From a virus (lineage: Duplodnaviria; Heunggongvirae; Uroviricota; Caudoviricetes), in IMG/VR virus record IMGVR_UViG_2718217897_000009, positions 1 through 18,768 of that record: a DNA stretch of 18,768 bases; one strand, 5' to 3'. The notes under the pieces were generated by a model. That model saw only the letters and a program-made list of their open reading frames with translations, ran no database searches and was not told the origin of the DNA. Positions 934-18,768 of the stretch are shown here, one piece after another. A program made the position numbers and the translations under genes. The stretch's first letter is position 1; every line of letters begins with the position of its first letter.

Positions 934-1210
934 CTTTTGTTAACTCCTTTTTATAGATGCGGGAGGTAATTCCTCACCCCGGTGCCGATTTTCAGGCATC
1001 CTGATTTAACTTAGCACCCGCAACTTAACTACAGGAAAACAAAGAGATAAATGTCTAATCCTGATGCAAATCGAGCCGATTTTTTAATCTTTACGGACTT
1101 TTACCCGCCTGGTTTATTAATTTCTTGACCTTCCCCTTGCTGGTTTTTTAAGTACTGCGTGACGCAACATTACGCCACGCATTTTCAATGAGTTAACGAA
1201 TCAAACTAAT
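934..1210. other. Host-prophage junction; expected attL region between the glsA start and the 3' end of int
   Basis: Non-coding stretch between a host housekeeping gene and a P2-type integrase. In P2 the attachment site lies just downstream of int. The core sequence cannot be defined without the other prophage end. Confidence 0.35.
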
Positions 1211-3447: not shown

Positions 3448-4407
3448 ATGAAAATTTGTATCGACGACGGCTCCACCAACATCAAGCTGGCATGGACTGA
3501 GAACGGCAAACGCCGCAACGCCATCAGCCCGAACAGCTTCAAGTCGGAATGGTCTGCGCCGTTCGGTGGCACGCAGCCCGCGAACTACATGCTTGATGGC
3601 GTGCGCTATGGTTTTGATCCGGTCAGCGATCGCTTTGTCCAGACGACCGACACGCAATACCAGTACAGCGATGTGAATGTAATTGCCATTCATCACGCGC
3701 TGGTCAAATCAGGCATCACACCACAGGAGGTGGATGTGGTTGTCACCCTGCCACTGAGCGAGTATTTCGATACAAACGCACAGCCGGACATGGCCAACAT
3801 CAACCGCAAAAAAGCGAACGTCATGCGCCCGGTGGAGTACCAGAACGGCGAAGCATTCACTATCCGTAACGTACGGGTTATGCCTGAATCCATTCCGGCT
3901 GGCTTTAAGGCACTGGCTGACATGAGTCCGTTTGAATCCCTGCTGATTGTGGATTTGGGCGGAACCACGCTGGATGTGGCAAAGGTTCAGGGGCAACTGG
4001 CAGGTATTAGCCAAGTGTTTTGCGATCCACACGTAGGCGTTTCTCTGATGGCCGATGCCGTACTGTCGGTGATGGCCACTAACGGTATGCGCACCAGTCA
4101 CCACATCGCCAATACCATTATCGAACATCGCCATGATGAAGCCTGGCTGCGCCAGCACATCCACAATGACGCGCATTACAACAGCCTGATGGCGGTTATT
4201 CGTGAAAAGGAAGAAACACTGAAACAACGCGTGATCCGCGCGCTGGCGGTTTTTTCGGGTTACGGGCGGGTGATGGTTGTCGGTGGCGGGGCGGAGATTG
4301 TGGCACCCGCTATCCGCGAAGCCTGCGGAGTTAATGCGACTTTCATCGCGGACGGGGTGCCACAGTTTGCTCTGGTTAATGGGCTGTACGCAATGAACAA
4401 GGAGTAA
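3448..4407 (+). CDS. parM: ParM/StbA-family actin-like segregation ATPase
   Basis: N-terminus MKICIDDGSTNIKLAW...ISPNSFKSEW and internal DLGGTTLD, VMPESIPAG and VVGGGAE motifs match plasmid R1 ParM/StbA as I remember it. Confidence 0.85.
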   Translation: MKICIDDGSTNIKLAWTENGKRRNAISPNSFKSEWSAPFGGTQPANYMLDGVRYGFDPVSDRFVQTTDTQYQYSDVNVIAIHHALVKSGITPQEVDVVVTLPLSEYFDTNAQPDMANINRKKANVMRPVEYQNGEAFTIRNVRVMPESIPAGFKALADMSPFESLLIVDLGGTTLDVAKVQGQLAGISQVFCDPHVGVSLMADAVLSVMATNGMRTSHHIANTIIEHRHDEAWLRQHIHNDAHYNSLMAVIREKEETLKQRVIRALAVFSGYGRVMVVGGGAEIVAPAIREACGVNATFIADGVPQFALVNGLYAMNKE

Positions 4408-4411
4408 ACCA

Positions 4412-4726
4412 ATGACGACACCAACCAGACGGATAAGTTTCTATCTGAAGCCCGCCGCCGTCAAGAGTGAACAGGAGGCGTGCAATTACCTCGATAGCCT
4501 GCCAGCCTCCGAACGCAGCCGCGCGCAACGCGCGGCCTTTCTGGCTGGGCTAGCACTCATAAAGCGCAACCCAGCATTTGCCTACTGGATGGCCGAATGG
4601 CCAGAGGACAACCTCCCCTTCAATACCGTTAGCATCAAGGAAACATACCAGGCTAATCAGCCTAGCGGAGTTGAATGCAATTTTTATAAAATAAAAAAGA
4701 ATATTCAGACCTTATTCCCAGAATAA
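4412..4726 (+). CDS. parR: ParR-family centromere-binding adaptor
   Basis: 104-aa protein RRISFYLKP...LDSLP.SERSRAQRAAFLAGLAL...LFPE resembles R1 ParR (RRTIAFKLNP...LDSIPQGERSRLNRAALTAGLAL...LFPKE); AAGGAG RBS; immediately downstream of parM. Confidence 0.75.
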   Translation: MTTPTRRISFYLKPAAVKSEQEACNYLDSLPASERSRAQRAAFLAGLALIKRNPAFAYWMAEWPEDNLPFNTVSIKETYQANQPSGVECNFYKIKKNIQTLFPE

Positions 4727-4809: not shown

Positions 4810-5652
4810 TCATGATGAAATTGCCGAAGTTTTTTTATCGTGCTGAAGTACCGCAAATGCCATTAAAACCTCAAGAGAATAGCGACGATAATACTTAACA
4901 AAACCATAATAAAATACTCGGGATGCAGCAATACAAAACAAGAGAAGAAAACAAAAAGGTAACAGCCTGATATTTATATCTATTAAAAAGGATAGAAGGA
5001 ACAGGAACATAAGCAACCAGACTGAAGCGAGAAAAACAAATGTAATGTTTCTACAAAAACCATACAAAGCAACATAGTTTTGCATTTTCACCTGATGATT
5101 TTTAGAATGTTCATACACATAATGATAAGCAAGGCGAAAAAGATCGCCCCTCAAGCCCTTACGTCGATATAGCGTAGATACAGAAAAAACATTTATATAA
5201 CCATCTCGTATTTGCGGCCAAAAGACTTTAATAAGTATAGAATGCAGTGTGGTTTTATGATGTTCTGCTTTATCAAAAGCTGATACAGGAAGTAAAAAAA
5301 CTCCACGGATAAAATTAACTATACTGAACTTAGTATTATGTCGTTTTATTTTCAGGGAGCTTCTTTTAGAAAACAGATAAATTGAAGGATACCCAAGTTT
5401 ACTGTTCATATATTTTTCAATTAAACAGGATGATAGAATAGATATGAAGTGACCTGAAATATATGATAGAACGATTAATACCACATATATAAATACAGTT
5501 ATTATTTCTTTATATTTCAGGATATGGTTAAGAATACCTTCTATATAAACAGGGTTAATTTCAATAGAAAACAAAAAAAGGATAAACAGGAATAACCCAC
5601 CTGGAATTAGATAGCCCAAAAAGTCATAAAATGAAAACGGATTCTGTGTCAC
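4810..5652 (-). CDS. Hypothetical multi-pass membrane protein (280 aa, GTG start), low-GC cargo
   Basis: Long ORF in a markedly AT-rich segment; hydrophobic stretches at about residues 13-30, 50-75, 205-230 and 238-256; no recognised catalytic motif. Confidence 0.6.
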   Translation of the reverse strand: MTQNPFSFYDFLGYLIPGGLFLFILFLFSIEINPVYIEGILNHILKYKEIITVFIYVVLIVLSYISGHFISILSSCLIEKYMNSKLGYPSIYLFSKRSSLKIKRHNTKFSIVNFIRGVFLLPVSAFDKAEHHKTTLHSILIKVFWPQIRDGYINVFSVSTLYRRKGLRGDLFRLAYHYVYEHSKNHQVKMQNYVALYGFCRNITFVFLASVWLLMFLFLLSFLIDINIRLLPFCFLLLFCIAASRVFYYGFVKYYRRYSLEVLMAFAVLQHDKKTSAISS

Positions 5653-5691
5653 ACTTCCCCCTGTGTTACTTGTAAATTAAAGGGTAAAACA

Positions 5692-6189
5692 TTATTTGTT
5701 TTTCCGTAAAGGATTAGCTTTCCATCTTCTTACTAACCATTCGAATTCTTGATATGTAGTATCCGAATTAATGCTTTCTCTGATTGCTTTAATTAATGGC
5801 TCGGCAATATCATATGTCTCTACAACTGTTGTGTAAGATGTTCTTTTTATCATTTTTTCATCATAAATACCTTCACGAATACTTACAGCAACTCGCTCGT
5901 AAAAATTTAAAATATATTGAAATTTTCGACGCTCGGCCATTTCTTCATCTGTTATTGTGCAACCATCACAAGGAAAAACATAAGAACGAAATGATTTGCC
6001 TGAACGATGCACTTGTTTCAGGGTATGCAATGACTCTATATATTGCATATCTTGCCGACTCTCAAAAAGAAAGTTGGCCGTTTGAGTTTTTTTTGCGGTA
6101 CGCACATTGTAGATAATGGTTCCAATGGCAACCAAAACGCCAAGCAGAACAATAGCATTGCTGATGATTTGTAGTGTTATTGGGTTCAT
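5692..6189 (-). CDS. Hypothetical protein with a single N-terminal TM helix (165 aa), low-GC cargo
   Basis: ORF with hydrophobic N-terminus (IISNAIVLLGVLVAIGTIIY) followed by a charged soluble domain; same strand as and 39 bp upstream of the 280-aa gene. Confidence 0.6.
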   Translation of the reverse strand: MNPITLQIISNAIVLLGVLVAIGTIIYNVRTAKKTQTANFLFESRQDMQYIESLHTLKQVHRSGKSFRSYVFPCDGCTITDEEMAERRKFQYILNFYERVAVSIREGIYDEKMIKRTSYTTVVETYDIAEPLIKAIRESINSDTTYQEFEWLVRRWKANPLRKNK

Positions 6190-6225: not shown

Positions 6226-7564
6226 CATAAGCGCTAACTTAAGGGTTGAACCATCTGAAGAATGCGACGCCTCGGTGCCTCGTTAAGACGATGCCTCGCG
6301 TTCTTCAATTGCGTTTTGTAGGCTGTCAGGGATACTGTCCCACGAATGGCCACCTGTAAGCTCCAGATGACCATTTTTGTTATTCTCCACAACGAGTTAG
6401 TTCTTCTTTTCGGATCCGGCACTTCTGGGGGGGAAATCCAGCGATGGCTGGATTATGTCGTCAATTAAAAATGCGGCGAGTAGATTAGCAAATATCCACG
6501 CTTTCGCGAGTTCAGGTTCCTTTGCACGCAAAGCATCCAGGTGCAGCAAACTTTTGAGCCGCTTAAAAGCCAGTTCAATTTGCCATCGCAGACGGTAACA
6601 ATCAGCCACTTGCTCTGCTGAATATTCATCTTCCGGTAATGATGTTAGCAATAGCACATGGCCCGCTGCTTCCAGCGTTTCCGCCTGAACTACTCGTCCT
6701 TTTCGACGATTCTCGCTGAGCAGTCGGGTTTTACTGATTAATGCTTTTTCGGGAGGAAGTGATACGGCAATGAGACGTGCCGGAAAGGGAGCTCCGGCTT
6801 TTTTATTACCTGAATTGCCTATCATTACAGTGGTTTCACCGTTCTTACCGCAATCCAGCCCGCGCAGAAAACCCATCATGTCAAAGCGCATTCCTTCTGC
6901 AGTTAACCAGCGCAATCCTCGCCAGTGAACCCGGACGATATAATCAGCTTCTCCAAAAGCAAGTGAGCGGATACATTCGGGACGCGAACCGAATCCCCGG
7001 TCAGCAATGCGTATCTCGTCTGCCGTTTGCGCAAATCGGTCCAGCCGTTCAGCGTCTCTGCTGTCGGTTAGCTCAAAATCAGTGAACTGACAGGTATGAG
7101 GATCATATCCCATATGTAGTCGCCATTCAGCGCTGCCGCCCCCGGGCGCACTGATTGCTGTTCCATCGACAAGACGCAATCTCTTTCCGCTTGTACAACC
7201 CGTAACTGCGGCGCGTACAGCAAGTGTTTGTGCGGCAAGTATGCCAAACCAGTCGGCGGCATTCCGCAGCCGCTTCAGGAGAGCCACGTCAGATAATGTT
7301 GCAACGTCATGGAGCTGAGCCCATGCAGTGACTTCACGTAATGACATCCCCCCGGGGCCGTAAGCCAGCCCCAGACGTAGCAGAGTTGCAGCATCACGAA
7401 TTTCGCGGCGGCGGGTTAGAGCCCCGGCATTACGTGCCGAAGTATCCAGTTCTTCGGGCTTACCAATATGGGCCAGAATTGCTGACCAGTTATCGTGAGA
7501 GTAATTCATCGGCACGTTAAATCATATCAGGCGTAATACCACAACCCTTAAGTTAGCGCTTATG
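6226..7564 (-). mobile_element. IS186 (IS4 family), 1339 bp, perfect 23-bp terminal inverted repeats CATAAGCGCTAACTTAAGGGTTG
   Basis: Terminal inverted repeats at 6226-6248 and 7542-7564 read directly; the internal ORF matches the IS186 transposase; flanked by an 11-bp direct repeat. Confidence 0.9.
6397..7509 (-). CDS. IS186 transposase (DDE, IS4 family), 370 aa
   Basis: Translation MNYSHDNWSAILAHIGKPEELDTSARNAGALTRRREIRDAATLLRLGLAYGPGG... matches IS186 transposase over its full length as I remember it; the ORF track starts two codons earlier (MPMNY). Confidence 0.9.
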   Translation of the reverse strand: MNYSHDNWSAILAHIGKPEELDTSARNAGALTRRREIRDAATLLRLGLAYGPGGMSLREVTAWAQLHDVATLSDVALLKRLRNAADWFGILAAQTLAVRAAVTGCTSGKRLRLVDGTAISAPGGGSAEWRLHMGYDPHTCQFTDFELTDSRDAERLDRFAQTADEIRIADRGFGSRPECIRSLAFGEADYIVRVHWRGLRWLTAEGMRFDMMGFLRGLDCGKNGETTVMIGNSGNKKAGAPFPARLIAVSLPPEKALISKTRLLSENRRKGRVVQAETLEAAGHVLLLTSLPEDEYSAEQVADCYRLRWQIELAFKRLKSLLHLDALRAKEPELAKAWIFANLLAAFLIDDIIQPSLDFPPRSAGSEKKN

Positions 7565-8135: not shown

Positions 8136-9185
8136 TCAGGATATGGGCGGGGTATCCAGCAGTGCGTAAGGGTTAAAACGGATCACCTCTTCGCCCAGCC
8201 AGTCATTAACGTGCTTCATCGCCTCCATCACCGGCATCAGTTCGTTGATCGCAAACACTCTGGCCGCCTTCTCCACATCACCAAAAGAACCCTGCCCGCT
8301 GGGCATTGCGCCCATCAGTTGTGGTGGTACACGGTGAGCGGCCAGCACATCATCACGGGAGGCCGCCTTGACGTTCATGAACTCATCCCGGGCGGTGATC
8401 TGCTGGAATGGCAGGATTTGCACACCGTCCTTCCCGCCGTTCGGTGCCTGGAGTAGCAGGTTCTTGAATGCCCCACCGCCTCTTGCGCCCTGCAACGCTC
8501 TTTCGAGAGCCTGCATACTTTCGCGATCAACCTGTGCTGCCCCCACGTAAATGATGCAGCCTGCATGTGAACCGTTGTCATAGTAGAGTTTGCGGAAGCG
8601 ATCTGCCGAGTGCGACAGACTGGCAGACAACAGGCCACCGAGATATTCCGGCATTCCGTACATCTCCTGGTTGATGTCGGGGTTCAGCACATGGCAGACG
8701 CGCCCCTGACGGAACTCGTGGTCCTGCTCCCCCGTCTGCACAAACCAGTACACATCCGGCTCAACACCACGACGGACGTATTTTGCCAGCGCGTGCCGTA
8801 GTTCCAGTTTTCCGCCCAGCCTGTTGGTGCGCAGTTCAAGAAACGCATTCCCGAAGACAAACCAGTCCAGCGCAAAGGCGGAGAACGCCTGCCGGGAGAG
8901 CAGCCGGTGCGGAATGAAGCAGCCCAGTATGGCATTCCGCTTGAAGTACAGCGCCGACTGGTGCCACGAGGTCTGCCGGGATGCCCGCGCCAGTCCGTAC
9001 CAGTCAACGGGCGTTTCGTAGTATCTGCCGTTACTCAGGCAGTATGCGTTATCCAGCAGGTCGAGTGCGTGCGCATCGTAAGGGCCGTCGAACGAGAAGG
9101 CGCTTAACGACGGCTGGCGGCGCAGTGCCTCTGCCAGCGCCACGCCGTCATCGCGGCGCGAATATTTTCGTTTTTGTTTTTTCAT
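8136..9185 (-). CDS. Phage portal protein (P2 gpQ-like), 349 aa
   Basis: Size and position match P2 Q (344 aa); start ATG overlaps the stop of the upstream terminase ORF (ATGA), as expected for the P-Q arrangement. The family assignment is a recollection-level call. Confidence 0.7.
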   Translation of the reverse strand: MKKQKRKYSRRDDGVALAEALRRQPSLSAFSFDGPYDAHALDLLDNAYCLSNGRYYETPVDWYGLARASRQTSWHQSALYFKRNAILGCFIPHRLLSRQAFSAFALDWFVFGNAFLELRTNRLGGKLELRHALAKYVRRGVEPDVYWFVQTGEQDHEFRQGRVCHVLNPDINQEMYGMPEYLGGLLSASLSHSADRFRKLYYDNGSHAGCIIYVGAAQVDRESMQALERALQGARGGGAFKNLLLQAPNGGKDGVQILPFQQITARDEFMNVKAASRDDVLAAHRVPPQLMGAMPSGQGSFGDVEKAARVFAINELMPVMEAMKHVNDWLGEEVIRFNPYALLDTPPIS

Positions 9186-9751
9186 CAGAACTCAATCACC
9201 CGCATTCCTGTTGCACCGTCCTCATCGCCCAGCGGCTCGTTAATGACGGCAAGCATGGTTGCCCACGCGAGGTCGCCGTGGTTTACGCCGCGTGTGCGGT
9301 CTGTTTCATACGTTATTGCCCCGCCCGCCGTTTTTGCCTTGCGCACAGCGTTGAATGCCCTGACCAGCTCACGTTCGCCCCGGTCATACTCCCAGCGCCC
9401 CGCACGAATAATCTGCAGCATCTTCAGCACAAGCGCGCGTTTGGATGCCAGCGTGAACGTGTACGGCACGGCGGCAGGCCAGAACCGCCGCACTATCTGG
9501 TACACTGCCTCACCGTTACCGCCGGTCACGTCGATACCAATGTGCTGGACGTTGTATTTGTGCGTGAACTGCTCAATCACACGGGCCTGCTCTTCAAATT
9601 CCAGCCCCTGCACCTGCAACGTCTCCACCGTGCGGAATTTGCCGCCCCTGACGGCAGGCGGTACAACAACAGACAGCGCCCCGCTGACGTAGCAGGAAAC
9701 AGGGGGATTTGCCCCTGTTTTTTTGTTCAGAATGCAGCCTTCACCATTCAT
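9185..9751 (-). pseudogene. 5'-truncated terminase large subunit (C-terminal nuclease domain only; ATPase domain missing)
   Basis: 188-aa ORF with terminase-nuclease-like features (IGIDVTGG ... VNHGDLAWATMLAV near the C-terminus) but no ATPase domain. P2 gpP is about 590 aa. The first ~18 codons overlap a hairpin/T-run and a tail-gene remnant, so the annotated start is probably spurious. Confidence 0.55.
9696..9723 (+). terminator. Rho-independent terminator-like hairpin (AAACAGGGG/CCCCTGTTT stem, T7 run)
   Basis: Inverted repeat followed by TTTTTTT on the plus strand. Confidence 0.45.
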
Positions 9752-9850
9752 CTCTAATCGTATTCAGTAATTCGCCCGCAGAAACAAACTAAAATTCATC
9801 CCCCGCATCACGCCACTGAAAGCAGACGGTAAACTCCAGATTTTCAAACC
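9726..9850 (-). pseudogene. Diverged remnant of the 3' end of a gpU-like tail gene
   Basis: About 70% nucleotide similarity to the 3' end of the intact U gene at 10508-10640, including the shared TTCAGAATGCAGCC and CTGAAAGC blocks; the minus-strand translation (..EFTVCFQWRDAGDEF*FVSAGELLN..) parallels the U C-terminus (..EFSISFQRCDEDMRERFQSASAGELLN..) but contains a stop. Confidence 0.4.
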
Positions 9851-10171
9851 AGCGTCAGAAGTATTTAAATGGCACCAGATGTAATATGCAGGCGATTAAT
9901 ATGGTGTGCTTAAAGATCATAAAAGCGGGCAACATTAAAACTCCGGGCTGTGTAAATTACCGCCACTCATAATCAGAGATGAAAACAGAATTAAACTGGC
10001 GGAGTGGATTGTATACATAAAATAAGTTCAGTTGTTGACTTTCACTTCCGTGAATTGATGAAGGTTATTACAATACATCGGTATGATCTCTCCTCCTTAA
10101 AAGGGAGGACTTTTCAGAACGCAGAAATTATTTATAATCCCGTAGTGTTCTATACATGCAAACATTCTTTT

Positions 10172-10195
10172 CCCGCCCCGTGCGGGCTTTTTTTT
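10172..10195 (+). terminator. Terminator-like hairpin (CCCGC/GCGGG stem, T8 run)
   Basis: Read directly; preceded about 35 bp upstream by a perfect TATAAT (10133-10138). Confidence 0.4.
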
Positions 10196-10285
10196 GCCGC
10201 AAAGATACAGTAACAAACAAAATTGTAATCATGGCAATCAAAACACGAGAAACATTTTCAGCAATTGCAATAACAAATTAAAATA

Positions 10286-10315
10286 TTGCAATTGACAATC
10301 CCCGCTTAATATAAT
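10286..10315 (+). promoter_or_regulatory. Sigma70-like promoter (-35 TTGCAA, 18-bp spacer, -10 TATAAT)
   Basis: Hexamers read directly; a terminator lies about 45 bp downstream, giving a predicted transcript of about 60 nt. Confidence 0.35.
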
Positions 10316-10359
10316 CCCTTCCGGAACATAGAACATTAAATCTTCACACAATGCATGTT

Positions 10360-10383
10360 GCCCTCTTTATGAGGGCTTTTTTT
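10360..10383 (+). terminator. Rho-independent terminator (GCCCTC/GAGGGC stem, T7 run)
   Basis: Perfect 6-bp GC-rich stem, 5-nt loop, TTTTTTT. Confidence 0.5.
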
Positions 10384-10401
10384 ATTTCCAGAATATCACC
10401 A

Positions 10402-10430
10402 TTGCCATCATCGGGCGATTTATATATAGT
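10402..10430 (+). promoter_or_regulatory. Sigma70-like promoter (-35 TTGCCA, 17-bp spacer, -10 TATAGT)
   Basis: Hexamers read directly; a terminator lies about 45 bp downstream. Confidence 0.3.
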
Positions 10431-10476
10431 CAGAATGTATTGACAACATTTTGCTTCTTTTCCATGAAGGCCATAA

Positions 10477-10506
10477 GGGAGTGCTTTTTACACTCCCTCT
10501 TTTTTT
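10477..10506 (+). terminator. Rho-independent terminator (GGGAGTG/CACTCCC stem, T7 run) abutting the U stop codon on the opposite strand
   Basis: Perfect 7-bp stem, 7-nt loop, T-run; oriented to stop plus-strand transcription before it runs antisense into the tail operon. Confidence 0.5.
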
Positions 10507-10508
10507 AT

Positions 10509-15160: not shown

Positions 15161-16342
15161 TTACGCACCTCCCAGCGTTGCAAAAGCGGAGTCGAAATAC
15201 TCATCCGTGAAGGTCTGGTACAGCGTCAGGTCTTCCATCGGCGGCACTGATGTGTACTTGTAGCGGATACGCACGCGCCCCTGACGTAAATCCGTCGTGC
15301 CGTTGTCCAGCACGTCATACCAGCACTCCGCACCGATAAGTTTTCCGGCGGTGACCAGGGCATTGAGTTTTGCGCGGATGGCGCTAATCACGTCCTTCAC
15401 GTTCGCCGGGGTCAGCGGTTCGTCAATGGTTTCGAACTGCGCCTCAGCGATGGTATCTGCCAGAATCTGCGCTGTGCGCGTGTACACCTCAAAGATGTAG
15501 TCGCTGGTTTCGGCAGTACGGTTCCCCCAGAAGCGGAAGCCGTTACGGCGAATAATCGTGGTGATTTCCTTGTTGTTCAGGTTGTTCGCATCACTGTCTT
15601 CAGCCTGCAACGACCAGAACACCTGCTGCGACATACCGAGCACATTTTTCAGCGCCACGTTGGACAGTGACTTGTGCCAGCCCTGCTCACTGTCAATCCG
15701 CGCACGCAACCCGCACGCATACGCCGCAGCCGGAAATGTTTCGTTATTTCCGCTCACCGGGTTGTAGGCAATGAAGTCAGGCCACAGCAGCATCAGCTCA
15801 CGCGCGGAGAACTTAGCGCGGTAAGTGATTGCCTCCGCCATCGTGCCACAGCCGTTACATCCGGCGTACACAAAGGCGCGGAGCTTGTCCGCAATGACGC
15901 ACAGGGCAGATGTGACAGCTTCGGTATCAAGGCCGGGAGCCGCCAGAATACGCGGGCGGTAACCAATGCTCTCGTCCTGTTCGGCAACCAGCAGCGCATA
16001 CATACCCGTATAGCTGCCGTCAGCCTGCGAACCACCGATGACAAGCTGGTCCTGTGTCTCACCTTCCTCTCCGGCTTCTGCCACACGCACCACGATAACC
16101 TTCGGGCTGGTCTGGTCGGAAATCGCCTTGAGCGTTTTGTACAGCGTGCCTGTTGTGCCTGCCTTACCCAGCACATTCGCCACGCGGGTGATCAATACGG
16201 GCCTGTTTAACGGGAACGCGTCGCTGTCTGCATCGTCCGCCGTGGCCACGATACCGATGACACTGGAATCAATGTCATTAATCGCGGTCACGAGGTCGGT
16301 GTTTTCTTTGACGCGTGCGCCGTGAAAGCGTGTTTCACTCAT
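15161..16342 (-). CDS. Contractile tail sheath protein gpFI-like (393 aa)
   Basis: Translation MSETRFHGARV...PLNRPVLIT...KLRAFVYA...ELMLLWPDF...QGWHKSLSNV...IRRNGFRFWGNRT...YTRTAQ resembles P2 FI; start chosen at the internal ATG preceded by AGGAGG. Confidence 0.9.
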   Translation of the reverse strand: MSETRFHGARVKENTDLVTAINDIDSSVIGIVATADDADSDAFPLNRPVLITRVANVLGKAGTTGTLYKTLKAISDQTSPKVIVVRVAEAGEEGETQDQLVIGGSQADGSYTGMYALLVAEQDESIGYRPRILAAPGLDTEAVTSALCVIADKLRAFVYAGCNGCGTMAEAITYRAKFSARELMLLWPDFIAYNPVSGNNETFPAAAYACGLRARIDSEQGWHKSLSNVALKNVLGMSQQVFWSLQAEDSDANNLNNKEITTIIRRNGFRFWGNRTAETSDYIFEVYTRTAQILADTIAEAQFETIDEPLTPANVKDVISAIRAKLNALVTAGKLIGAECWYDVLDNGTTDLRQGRVRIRYKYTSVPPMEDLTLYQTFTDEYFDSAFATLGGA

Positions 16343-16505: not shown

Positions 16506-17639
16506 ATGAACCTTTCAGGCATTAACGGATACCTCGCGGGGCTGGCAGAGTGCGTGAAGATACCGGATTTTTCCGTCACAACTGACAACGCGGAAACCGG
16601 AAAAAAAGAGGAAAACGAGGCGCTGACCCGACGGGTCATCTCGCTGGCAATGACCGACAACCGGGGATTTGAAGCAGACCAGTTAACCCTCACGATTGAC
16701 GACTGCGACGGCAGCGTGCGTCTCCCGAAGCGCGGGCAGAAGCTGGGGCTGGCGCTGGGCTGGAAAGGTGAGGCGCTGACGGACAAGGGAGCCTTCATCG
16801 TTGACGAGGTGACACACGAGGGACCGCCGGACAGACTCACCATTACGGCCAGCAGCGCAGACTTCCGCCAGGAGTTCAACGTGAAGCGTGAAGTGTCCTG
16901 GCATGACGTGACGGTGGGGCAGGTTGTTTCTGCCATCGCGTACCGTTACGGGCTGAAAGCGCAAATCAGCGCCTCACTGGCAGGGGTGGAAATCGACCAC
17001 GCCGACCAGACGGAGGAAAGCGACATCTCGTTCCTCACGCGTATGGCAGACATGCTGGGAGCAATCGCCACCATCAAGAACGGCGCACTGCTTTTCATCG
17101 TGCCCGGACAGGGGGTGAGCGCCAGCGGAAAGCCGCTGCCCTCATTCGCCATCACCCGCAGCAGCGGTGACAGCCATCACTTCCGCATTGCAGACCGGCA
17201 GGCGTACACGGGGGTACGCGCTTACTGGCTGGACCTGGACTTTGGCAAAAAGAAAAAAGTCAGCGTGAAGAAACGTGGTTCCACCCAAAAAGCAAAAAAG
17301 GAGAAAAGCAGCAGCCGCGAGGGGGATTACATGGAGGGCGCAGACGGCAATGTGTACGTCATGCGCCAAACCTTCAAAAACGAGGAGGCCGCACGCCGTG
17401 CGGCGGCGGCAAAGTGGCAGCAGCTACAGCGCGGTGCGGCTGAGTTCTCCATCACACTGGCACGCGGTCGCCCCGACCTGTACCCCGAAATGCGCGGCAC
17501 GGTATCCGGTTTCAAGAGCGACATCGACGCGGAAGACTGGGTGCTGGCGAAGGTGGAGCACAACATCGACGACAGCGGCTTCACCACGCGGCTTGAGCTG
17601 GAATTAAAAATTCCTGAATGGATAGCACAACAGGAATAA
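16506..17639 (+). CDS. Tail protein gpD-like (late control D family), 377 aa
   Basis: Translation contains ...TDNRGFEADQLTLTIDDCDGSV.LP.RG..L.LALGWKG...SWHD...SFLTR...HHF.IADR.AYTGV...EFSI.LA.GR.D.Y.E..V.VSGFK...W...V.H...SGFTT.LELE, typical of the P2 D family; GGAG RBS 8 nt upstream of ATG 16506. Confidence 0.85.
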   Translation: MNLSGINGYLAGLAECVKIPDFSVTTDNAETGKKEENEALTRRVISLAMTDNRGFEADQLTLTIDDCDGSVRLPKRGQKLGLALGWKGEALTDKGAFIVDEVTHEGPPDRLTITASSADFRQEFNVKREVSWHDVTVGQVVSAIAYRYGLKAQISASLAGVEIDHADQTEESDISFLTRMADMLGAIATIKNGALLFIVPGQGVSASGKPLPSFAITRSSGDSHHFRIADRQAYTGVRAYWLDLDFGKKKKVSVKKRGSTQKAKKEKSSSREGDYMEGADGNVYVMRQTFKNEEAARRAAAAKWQQLQRGAAEFSITLARGRPDLYPEMRGTVSGFKSDIDAEDWVLAKVEHNIDDSGFTTRLELELKIPEWIAQQE

Positions 17640-17689
17640 CCGGAATAAAATCACGACGATTCACCTTCACGAAAAAGGAGGTCTTCGTC

Positions 17690-17947
17690 GTGTCTTTTCC
17701 GTGTCCTTTTTGTGGTGCGAGCACACGCACCCGCACCAGTCGCGCAGCGAACGATACCGGAACTGTCCGCTGGAAACTCTGCCAGTGCAACAACCCGGAA
17801 TGCAGTCTCTCCTTCTCGACGCTGGAGAGTTTCGACAAAATCACTGTTAAACGTTATGGCTGCACTTCACAGGATATTCCGTGGCAAAGCCTGCCTGCGT
17901 CTCACCGGGGTGATACGCAGTTGTCACTGCCGTTTCCGGTAATGTGA
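17690..17947 (+). CDS. ogr: Ogr/Delta-family zinc-finger late transcription activator (GTG start), 85 aa
   Basis: MSFPCPFCGASTRTRTSR...CQCNNPEC has the C-x2-C ... C-x-C-x4-C arrangement and RTSR motif comparable to P2 Ogr (MFHCPLCQHAAHARTSRY...CQNVNC); AGGAGG RBS 8 nt upstream of the GTG. Confidence 0.8.
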   Translation: MSFPCPFCGASTRTRTSRAANDTGTVRWKLCQCNNPECSLSFSTLESFDKITVKRYGCTSQDIPWQSLPASHRGDTQLSLPFPVM

Positions 17948-18003
17948 GCACATGCCTGTTTTTGTTTTTGTTTCTGTATTATTTTGATTCTGGAGTTTTA
18001 TTT

Positions 18004-18768
18004 TTGACCGGATTTCAACAACGCATCGTGACCGAAAACACCCGCCTGTACTGTGGCGACGCACTGGCAGTATTACCGCATATTGAGCCGGACAGTGTGG
18101 ACGCACTCATCACCGACCCGCCCTACAGTTCCGGCGCGACACACAAAGCCGGACGCAGCCTTCAGGGCAGCCACGCAAAATATCTGAACAGTGAGAGCCT
18201 TCACCGCTTTGAGGGCTTCGCAGGTGAAAACATGGATGCCCGTTCATGGGCATACTGGATGCAGTTGTGGATGATGCAGGCGTACCGCGCCGTCAGGCCG
18301 GGAGGGTATGCTCTGGTCTTTTCCGACTGGCGACAATTACCCGCCCTGACCGATGCTTTTCAGGCAAGTGGCTTTACATGGCGCGGCATTGTTGTCTGAA
18401 ACAAAGGAAGAGCGGCGCGAACGCCTCATGTGGGGTATTTCCGGCATCAGTGCGAATTTATGGTATGGGGCAGCAAAGGCCATCTGGATAAATCCCCGAA
18501 CGGCCCGTTTGACGGCTGTATGTCGTTTCCGGTCAGGCCGCAAAAGAAACTGCATCCGACCGGAAAACCGGAAGCGCTGATGGCAGAGTTGATCAGGACA
18601 GCAGGCGACGGCGGCACAGTCCTTGACCCGTTCATGGGATCGGGAACCACAGGCGTTGCCGCACTGAAAGCGGGCTGCAAATTCATCGGCATCGAGACAA
18701 GCCCGCACTACTTCAGTGTGACTGTTGAGCGACTGCGGCAGGCGCAGTTGATCCCCGCAGCAGCATAA
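18004..18768 (+). pseudogene. Beta-class DNA methyltransferase (DPPY motif IV before FMGSGTTG motif I) interrupted by an in-frame TGA at 18397-18399
   Basis: Two ORF-track segments lie in the same frame separated by a single TGA. Motifs ITDPPYSS (N-terminal part) and DPFMGSGTTG (C-terminal part) are present. Start is uncertain (TTG 18004 with GGAG upstream, or a later GTG). The gene ends at the last base of the window. Confidence 0.65.

Follow-up and report, generated by a model that had tools for sequence, protein, structure and literature searches.

Nonsense mutation in the cargo DNA methyltransferase of a decaying P2-like prophage, very probably a recent pseudogene of one Escherichia coli clone

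A stretch of 18,768 nucleotides, referred to here as the window, closes with a gene for a DNA methyltransferase whose reading frame is broken by one in-frame TGA. The break is very probably a nonsense mutation in the cargo methyltransferase of a decaying P2-like prophage, carried by one E. coli clone, and the gene a recent pseudogene. It is a case of ordinary gene decay, already annotated by RefSeq as a pseudogene. The gene has the following elements.

17992-17995, plus strand: Shine-Dalgarno-like GGAG, read from the sequence, ending 8 nt 5' of the TTG start.
18004-18768, plus strand: class-beta N6/N4 DNA methyltransferase gene of 254 codons with one internal stop, taken to be a pseudogene (PF01555 and RefSeq).
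18115-18126, plus strand: motif IV, DPPY, codons 38-41, catalytic and binding the target base; read from the sequence, with D38, P39, P40 and Y41 invariant.
18397-18399, plus strand: premature TGA at codon 132 (W132 to stop), derived from TGG through a G-to-A change at 18399; intact alleles have TGG.
18631-18645, plus strand: motif I, FMGSG, codons 210-214, SAM binding, 3' of the TGA; read from the sequence, with F210, G212 and S213 invariant.

The open reading frame runs from TTG 18004, the start also chosen by RefSeq, to TAA 18766-18768, the final bases of the window. A preliminary description of this DNA had placed a single in-frame TGA at 18397-18399, splitting a methyltransferase between motif IV and motif I in the context ...TWRGIVV-TGA-NKG..., and this account is accurate in each respect: the TGA is the sole internal stop in the frame, and the segments on its two sides match PF01555 in the same frame. 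The local sequence at 18390-18399 is tgttgtcTGA, translated as ...FTWRGIVV-stop-NKGRAART.... Because the TGA separates DPPY on its 5' side from FMGSG on its 3' side, the window copy has no uninterrupted frame containing both motifs and, judged by its sequence, is a pseudogene of the PF01555 family and not a functional member. RefSeq labels the identical sequence 'DNA-methyltransferase, pseudo, internal stop' in all four carrier strains.

Assignment of the gene to a family is clear from its intact allele, which matches PF01555 (N6_N4_Mtase) with E=1.8e-28 and 100.4 bits against a cut-off of 26.7. Taken alone, the C segment scores 69.6 bits (profile positions 159-220) and the N segment 24.0 bits, just under the cut-off (profile positions 1-72). 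Motif IV precedes motif I, as in class-beta enzymes, in which the order is IV, TRD, I (PMC7544214). The same succession of DPPY, TRD and FxGxG is seen in M1.HpyAVI (5hfj), CcrM (6pbd), M.MboIIA and M.RsrI; the intact allele aligns with M1.HpyAVI over its full length (E=5e-19) and has, like these enzymes, the conserved W-x-K and an HxxY-type hairpin. The C-terminal DNA-binding domain of CcrM has no counterpart in the window gene, and the window copy differs from the class-beta enzymes in stopping at codon 132. Since its neighbours are ogr upstream and attR and copA downstream, with no restriction endonuclease partner of the kind that marks a type II restriction-modification system, the gene is one for an orphan methyltransferase. 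The class-beta enzyme that it encodes probably acts on N6 of adenine. PADLOC matches the gene to methyltransferase models only.

The residue lost at the TGA is invariant. A search of about 5.8 billion proteins yielded more than 7,500 homologues, the best 120 of which, ranging from 99% down to about 50% identity, were aligned. Such an alignment had been proposed as a check for Trp at this site, and residue 132 is indeed Trp in 120 of these best 120, inside an invariant W-[DN]-K motif with an invariant R139 and a near-invariant P141 (117 of the same 120) after it; a stop at position 132 occurs in none of them. The preliminary description had also considered whether homologues might show a natural domain break here with independent starts. 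All 119 full-length homologues listed are instead single chains of 232-289 aa that span the site, the remaining match (P0070) being a partial sequence. W132 aligns with a Trp in both M1.HpyAVI (5hfj) and CcrM (6pbd), which in the former is W108 by numbering derived from the alignment. This position falls inside residues 101-133 of M1.HpyAVI, the beta6-beta7 hairpin loop that forms part of the putative DNA-binding region and is followed by the TRD (PMC5173035). A literature search on the aligned Trp of M1.HpyAVI turned up the boundaries of the hairpin and TRD only, and no role ascribed to this residue in particular.

Comparison within the species identifies TGG as the ancestral codon. A megablast search of 5,426 complete E. 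coli genomes with the gene as query finds it in only 11, of which eight have the TGA and three are intact. The intact copies, from TUM9803, 2-1 and 135, are uninterrupted 254-codon genes with TGG at codon 132, in agreement with the TGG (Trp) to TGA change initially suggested from the sequence context. With such continuous close relatives, the pair of in-frame segments in the window is no product of chance. Relative to the consensus of all alleles, the window shows a single difference, the G-to-A change at base 18399. The nearest intact allele, that of TUM9803, has two further differences from the window, both private to TUM9803.

The eight complete genomes with the TGA match the window gene at 100% identity and represent four strains. 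Two of these, AST19 and AST205, come from Japan and one, E100341, from Gambia; the fourth is the UK isolate EC0026B of ST484 (PMC10569738), present as five laboratory derivatives. Beyond these, the exact 131-aa N-terminal product is found on 145 public assembly contigs (204 blocks in the index) and the 102-aa C-terminal ORF on 85 contigs of public assemblies, and at least ten further independent assemblies or read sets (NCBI, ENA, Logan) all have TGA. All 15 TGA copies that were compared, the window and 14 fetched loci, are identical across 765 nt. In the 2.7 kb 3' of the methyltransferase stop, comprising the attR region and copA, the 12 carrier loci whose sequence extends far enough for flank comparison differ by 0-1 nt, whereas TUM9803 shows 5 differences from the carriers and strain 2-1 shows 73. 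Such near-identical copA flanks indicate that the TGA allele marks one clone, and the carriers examined are, by this measure, one clonal lineage. A recent pseudogene, one of the options first put forward for the gene, is thus the option that fits a copy one base away from the intact consensus and identical in all 15 carriers over 765 nt.

RefSeq annotation of the identical sequence shows that the window spans glsA to the methyltransferase stop, with a P2-like prophage inside that has integrated into the E. coli copA promoter region. Two features bear on the limits of the element and on the position of the methyltransferase within it.

1115-1143, plus strand: attL core, 29 bp, TATTAATTTCTTGACCTTCCCCTTGCTGG, a direct repeat.
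17690-17947, plus strand: ogr/Delta-like zinc-finger late-gene activator, directly 5' of the methyltransferase (RefSeq, identical sequence).

The gene order begins with an integrase, a repressor-like HTH protein, a truncated replication endonuclease, and ParM and StbB-like partition genes; two cargo genes, IS421, the portal gene and a truncated terminase gene follow, and then directly gpU, tape measure, gpE, tube, sheath, gpD, ogr and the methyltransferase. An intrinsic terminator lies 3' of the methyltransferase, and attR, the second 29-bp copy, is situated about 105 nt past the methyltransferase stop and window end, between the terminator and copA (positions 20373-20401 of locus L005). Because the att core repeats past its stop, the methyltransferase is the last gene inside the element. 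The order gpD, ogr, methyltransferase, terminator, attR, together with the duplicated 29-bp core, is that expected of P2-like cargo. The core presumably overlaps the copA promoter and the CueR operator (TTGACCTTCCCCTTGCTGGAAGG). At attR, beside copA, the promoter sequence is restored in full; attL, which lies between glsA and the integrase gene, retains part of it.

Other parts of the element have features of their own. The ParM-like and StbB-like plasmid partition genes (window 3448-4726, plus strand) lie inside the prophage beside the truncated replication endonuclease gene and hint that the ancestral element could have been maintained in a plasmid-like way. Between the replication and portal genes is a variable cargo slot (window 4810-6189, minus strand) that holds a 280-aa protein and a DUF4760 protein; the same slot is occupied by an AAA ATPase and an S8 peptidase in 2-1 and by a Dam methylase and an AAA ATPase in TUM9803. 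The 280-aa protein has a weak match to Csx27 (PADLOC E=1.2e-5), the sole PADLOC match among the hotspot neighbours, and the slot looks like a defence-gene hotspot.

Related methyltransferases are known from temperate phages, while megablast found no near-identical DNA in sequenced phages. The best phage relative at the protein level is the methyltransferase of Escherichia phage Chuche (80% identity), whose gene occupies the same place in a P2-like genome, with ogr on one side and the att/int end on the other, and has no restriction enzyme among the annotated Chuche genes within 4 kb on either side. Bpm of Bordetella phage BPP-1 (about 50% identity) and the methyltransferase of Stenotrophomonas phage Smp131 (44%) belong to the same family and are likewise orphan cargo of temperate phages. 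Unlike the genes of these three phages, the window copy appears inactivated. The surroundings of the genes differ as well: Chuche has Com-like 'control of modification' (Mu Com-like) and MokW-like toxin genes immediately upstream of its methyltransferase (L019 3417-4726), both of which are missing from the window, and a 'translational regulator' adjoins the methyltransferase of Smp131. Since ogr in the window is followed only by a T-rich spacer of 56 nt (17948-18003, with (TGTTTT)x3.5 at 17957-17977), control of methyltransferase expression must, judging from the gene layout, differ from that in Chuche and Smp131.

The prophage that carries the TGA is itself decaying: its replication and terminase genes are truncated, a large segment is deleted and IS421 has inserted. 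The deletion is marked by the following feature.

9185-9685, minus strand: truncated terminase large-subunit gene, marking deletion of the head, lysis, baseplate and tail-fibre modules (comparison with near-complete prophages).

This terminase-to-gpU deletion (window ~9185-10508, junction near 9685) is common to all TGA carriers examined, such that deletion and TGA occur together in every one. Near-full-length prophages of ~33-35 kb at the same att site in 2-1 and TUM9803 keep the head, lysis, baseplate and fibre genes as well as an intact methyltransferase. The IS4-family IS421 transposase gene (window 6281-7393, plus strand) lies between the DUF4760 and portal genes; the EC0026B locus lacks IS421 and is otherwise identical. 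Sister carriers have extra lesions, among them loss of the tail block from tape measure to gpD, a sheath/tube deletion, and truncation of portal and gpD; in three carrier loci (L014-L016) no ogr gene is called 5' of the methyltransferase. The sheath gene has an internal stop in E100341 (L001 1172-2353 / L006 16661-17842) and in GCA_030002975 (L012), and is intact in AST205 and in the window (15161-16342, minus strand), so the window would correspond to an AST205-like member of the clone. AST205 has IS421 and the tail block, AST19 has IS421 without the tail block, and EC0026B has neither, a set of combinations that calls for at least one recurrent event or precise loss of the IS. Within one clone, then, the prophage is decaying stepwise, as read from these differences among its loci. 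The cryptic-prophage pseudogenes of E. coli present the same picture, one nonsense mutation amid truncated genes, a large deletion and an inserted IS, and the window gene, with no substantive difference from them, is a typical example.

These observations are consistent with a simple course of events. A spontaneous G-to-A transition would have turned the Trp132 codon from TGG into TGA, so that translation ends after 131 residues. The product would keep DPPY and be without the beta6-beta7 DNA-contacting hairpin, the target-recognition region and the SAM-binding half that contains motif I; on the strength of these losses we infer that it is unable to methylate, and its inactivity can be assumed with considerable assurance. 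The methyltransferase would originally have served the phage in a protective role, most likely by methylating DNA, of the phage or of the host, in the lytic or the lysogenic state. In the carrier lineage, which includes the ST484 isolate EC0026B, the prophage appears to be a non-inducible remnant that is still losing parts. A gene serving the phage would no longer be under selection in such a remnant, and the nonsense mutation may therefore have drifted to fixation with the clone, once the prophage had become a remnant or around that time, leaving a recent pseudogene. Relaxed selection after prophage inactivation is a plausible cause of the loss.

The preliminary description had also raised low-level read-through of the stop. 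It is improbable that the gene is instead a leaky pseudogene, in which RF2 ends most ribosomes at UGA-A and tRNA-Trp reads a small fraction, with measurable consequences. In E. coli, Trp-tRNA-Trp competes with RF2 for UGA, and the resulting read-through differs from one cell to another (PMC10570021); a passage in PMC5289835, citing Engelberg-Kulka 1981, describes UGA followed by A as particularly prone to misreading by tRNA-Trp, and the +4 base here is A. Inserted Trp would rebuild the exact wild-type enzyme, and low activity, variable from cell to cell, would persist. Exact restoration of Trp is, however, a general property of any TGG-to-TGA-A mutation and not evidence of function. That no second lesion has appeared in the downstream half of any of the 15 TGA copies compared might seem to favour a gene still in use, but it is uninformative on selection because the lineage is so young that none would be expected in 765 nt, and missing second mutations were rejected as a sign of selection on the ground that the carriers are clonal. 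Nor is there any read-through-stimulating structure: shuffled sequences fold as well as the RNA of 18390-18470 (z = +0.76), which has no SECIS-like fold, and Rfam at E<=1 gave no match over 17600-18768. The lack of a stop among the best 120 homologues means that the site is not a conserved recoding site, and the surrounding prophage is visibly decaying. Natural isolates carry a more efficient RF2 variant, Ala246, than K-12, and read-through in them should for this reason be below the K-12 level. It is very unlikely that UGA-A has been tolerated or maintained and is biologically exploited because read-through yields low and variable amounts of wild-type enzyme, and nothing suggests that read-through is under selection. 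If true, the phage methyltransferase would have become an epigenetic modifier that acts stochastically and sub-stoichiometrically on the host chromosome.

Selection might alternatively have favoured the nonsense allele itself, methylation being costly or disturbing to host gene regulation. Members of the lineage in which it is fixed have been sampled in Japan, Gambia and the UK, and the allele's 145 contigs compare with 86 for the commonest intact variant listed in the cluster. This abundance, however, reflects clonal expansion and the sampling of one lineage; the stop is of single origin, with no sign of recurrent inactivation, and many neighbouring prophage genes are decaying too, as expected under neutral loss. 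Adaptive loss is accordingly given little credence. Coexistence of intact and interrupted alleles among strains also recalls the ON (intact) and OFF (interrupted) methyltransferase states of phasevarions. These switch by simple-sequence-repeat slippage or invertible segments, whereas here a single base has been substituted and the substitution is fixed in one clone. The methyltransferase gene contains no tandem repeat, the sole nearby repeat being the intergenic one at 17957-17977, and phase variation is excluded by the lack of a repeat at the site and by the identical substitution in all carriers.

A sequencing or assembly error, with G (TGG) as the true base, had been another of the options raised at the outset and would explain why a window known from assembled sequence departs at one base from the intact alleles, but the chance of it is negligible given that the same TGA is present in complete genomes of four strains from three countries and in more than ten independent assemblies, that the N-terminal product recurs on so many contigs, and that the site lies outside any homopolymer or simple repeat. 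The last reading, in which the interrupted gene works as a two-piece methyltransferase or is subject to programmed recoding by selenocysteine or a suppressor tRNA, draws on downstream ORFs reported by gene callers, the longer of which is listed here.

18430-18768, plus strand: in-frame GTG-initiated downstream ORF of 112 aa, not a credible independent gene (no usable Shine-Dalgarno).

An in-frame ATG at 18460 opens the shorter, 102-aa ORF, and both starts lack a Shine-Dalgarno close enough to be used; AAGGAAG is found 20 nt 5' of GTG 18430, too far to serve. Restart would also drop the invariant W132, K134 and R139 and the near-invariant P141, and an independent C-terminal gene was rejected on these grounds and because the homologues are single chains. 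As to recoding, the homologues have Trp at the site, not Cys, which speaks against selenocysteine; selenocysteine insertion and stimulated read-through were rejected on the lack of stops among the best 120 homologues, of a suitable fold and of an Rfam match, and a suppressor tRNA borne by the element was rejected because the window contains no tRNA gene anywhere. This reading, too, has virtually no chance of being correct.

As a recent pseudogene in a decaying prophage, the locus is of little importance beyond correct annotation, for which the consequences are direct. The 131-aa and 102-aa 'methyltransferase' proteins reported by gene callers should be treated as one pseudogene, and the methylation motif of the enzyme is not to be expected in TGA carriers, including the ST484 isolate EC0026B. 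The locus offers a clean, datable case of stepwise prophage decay in one clone, and the TGA could act as a marker of the lineage.
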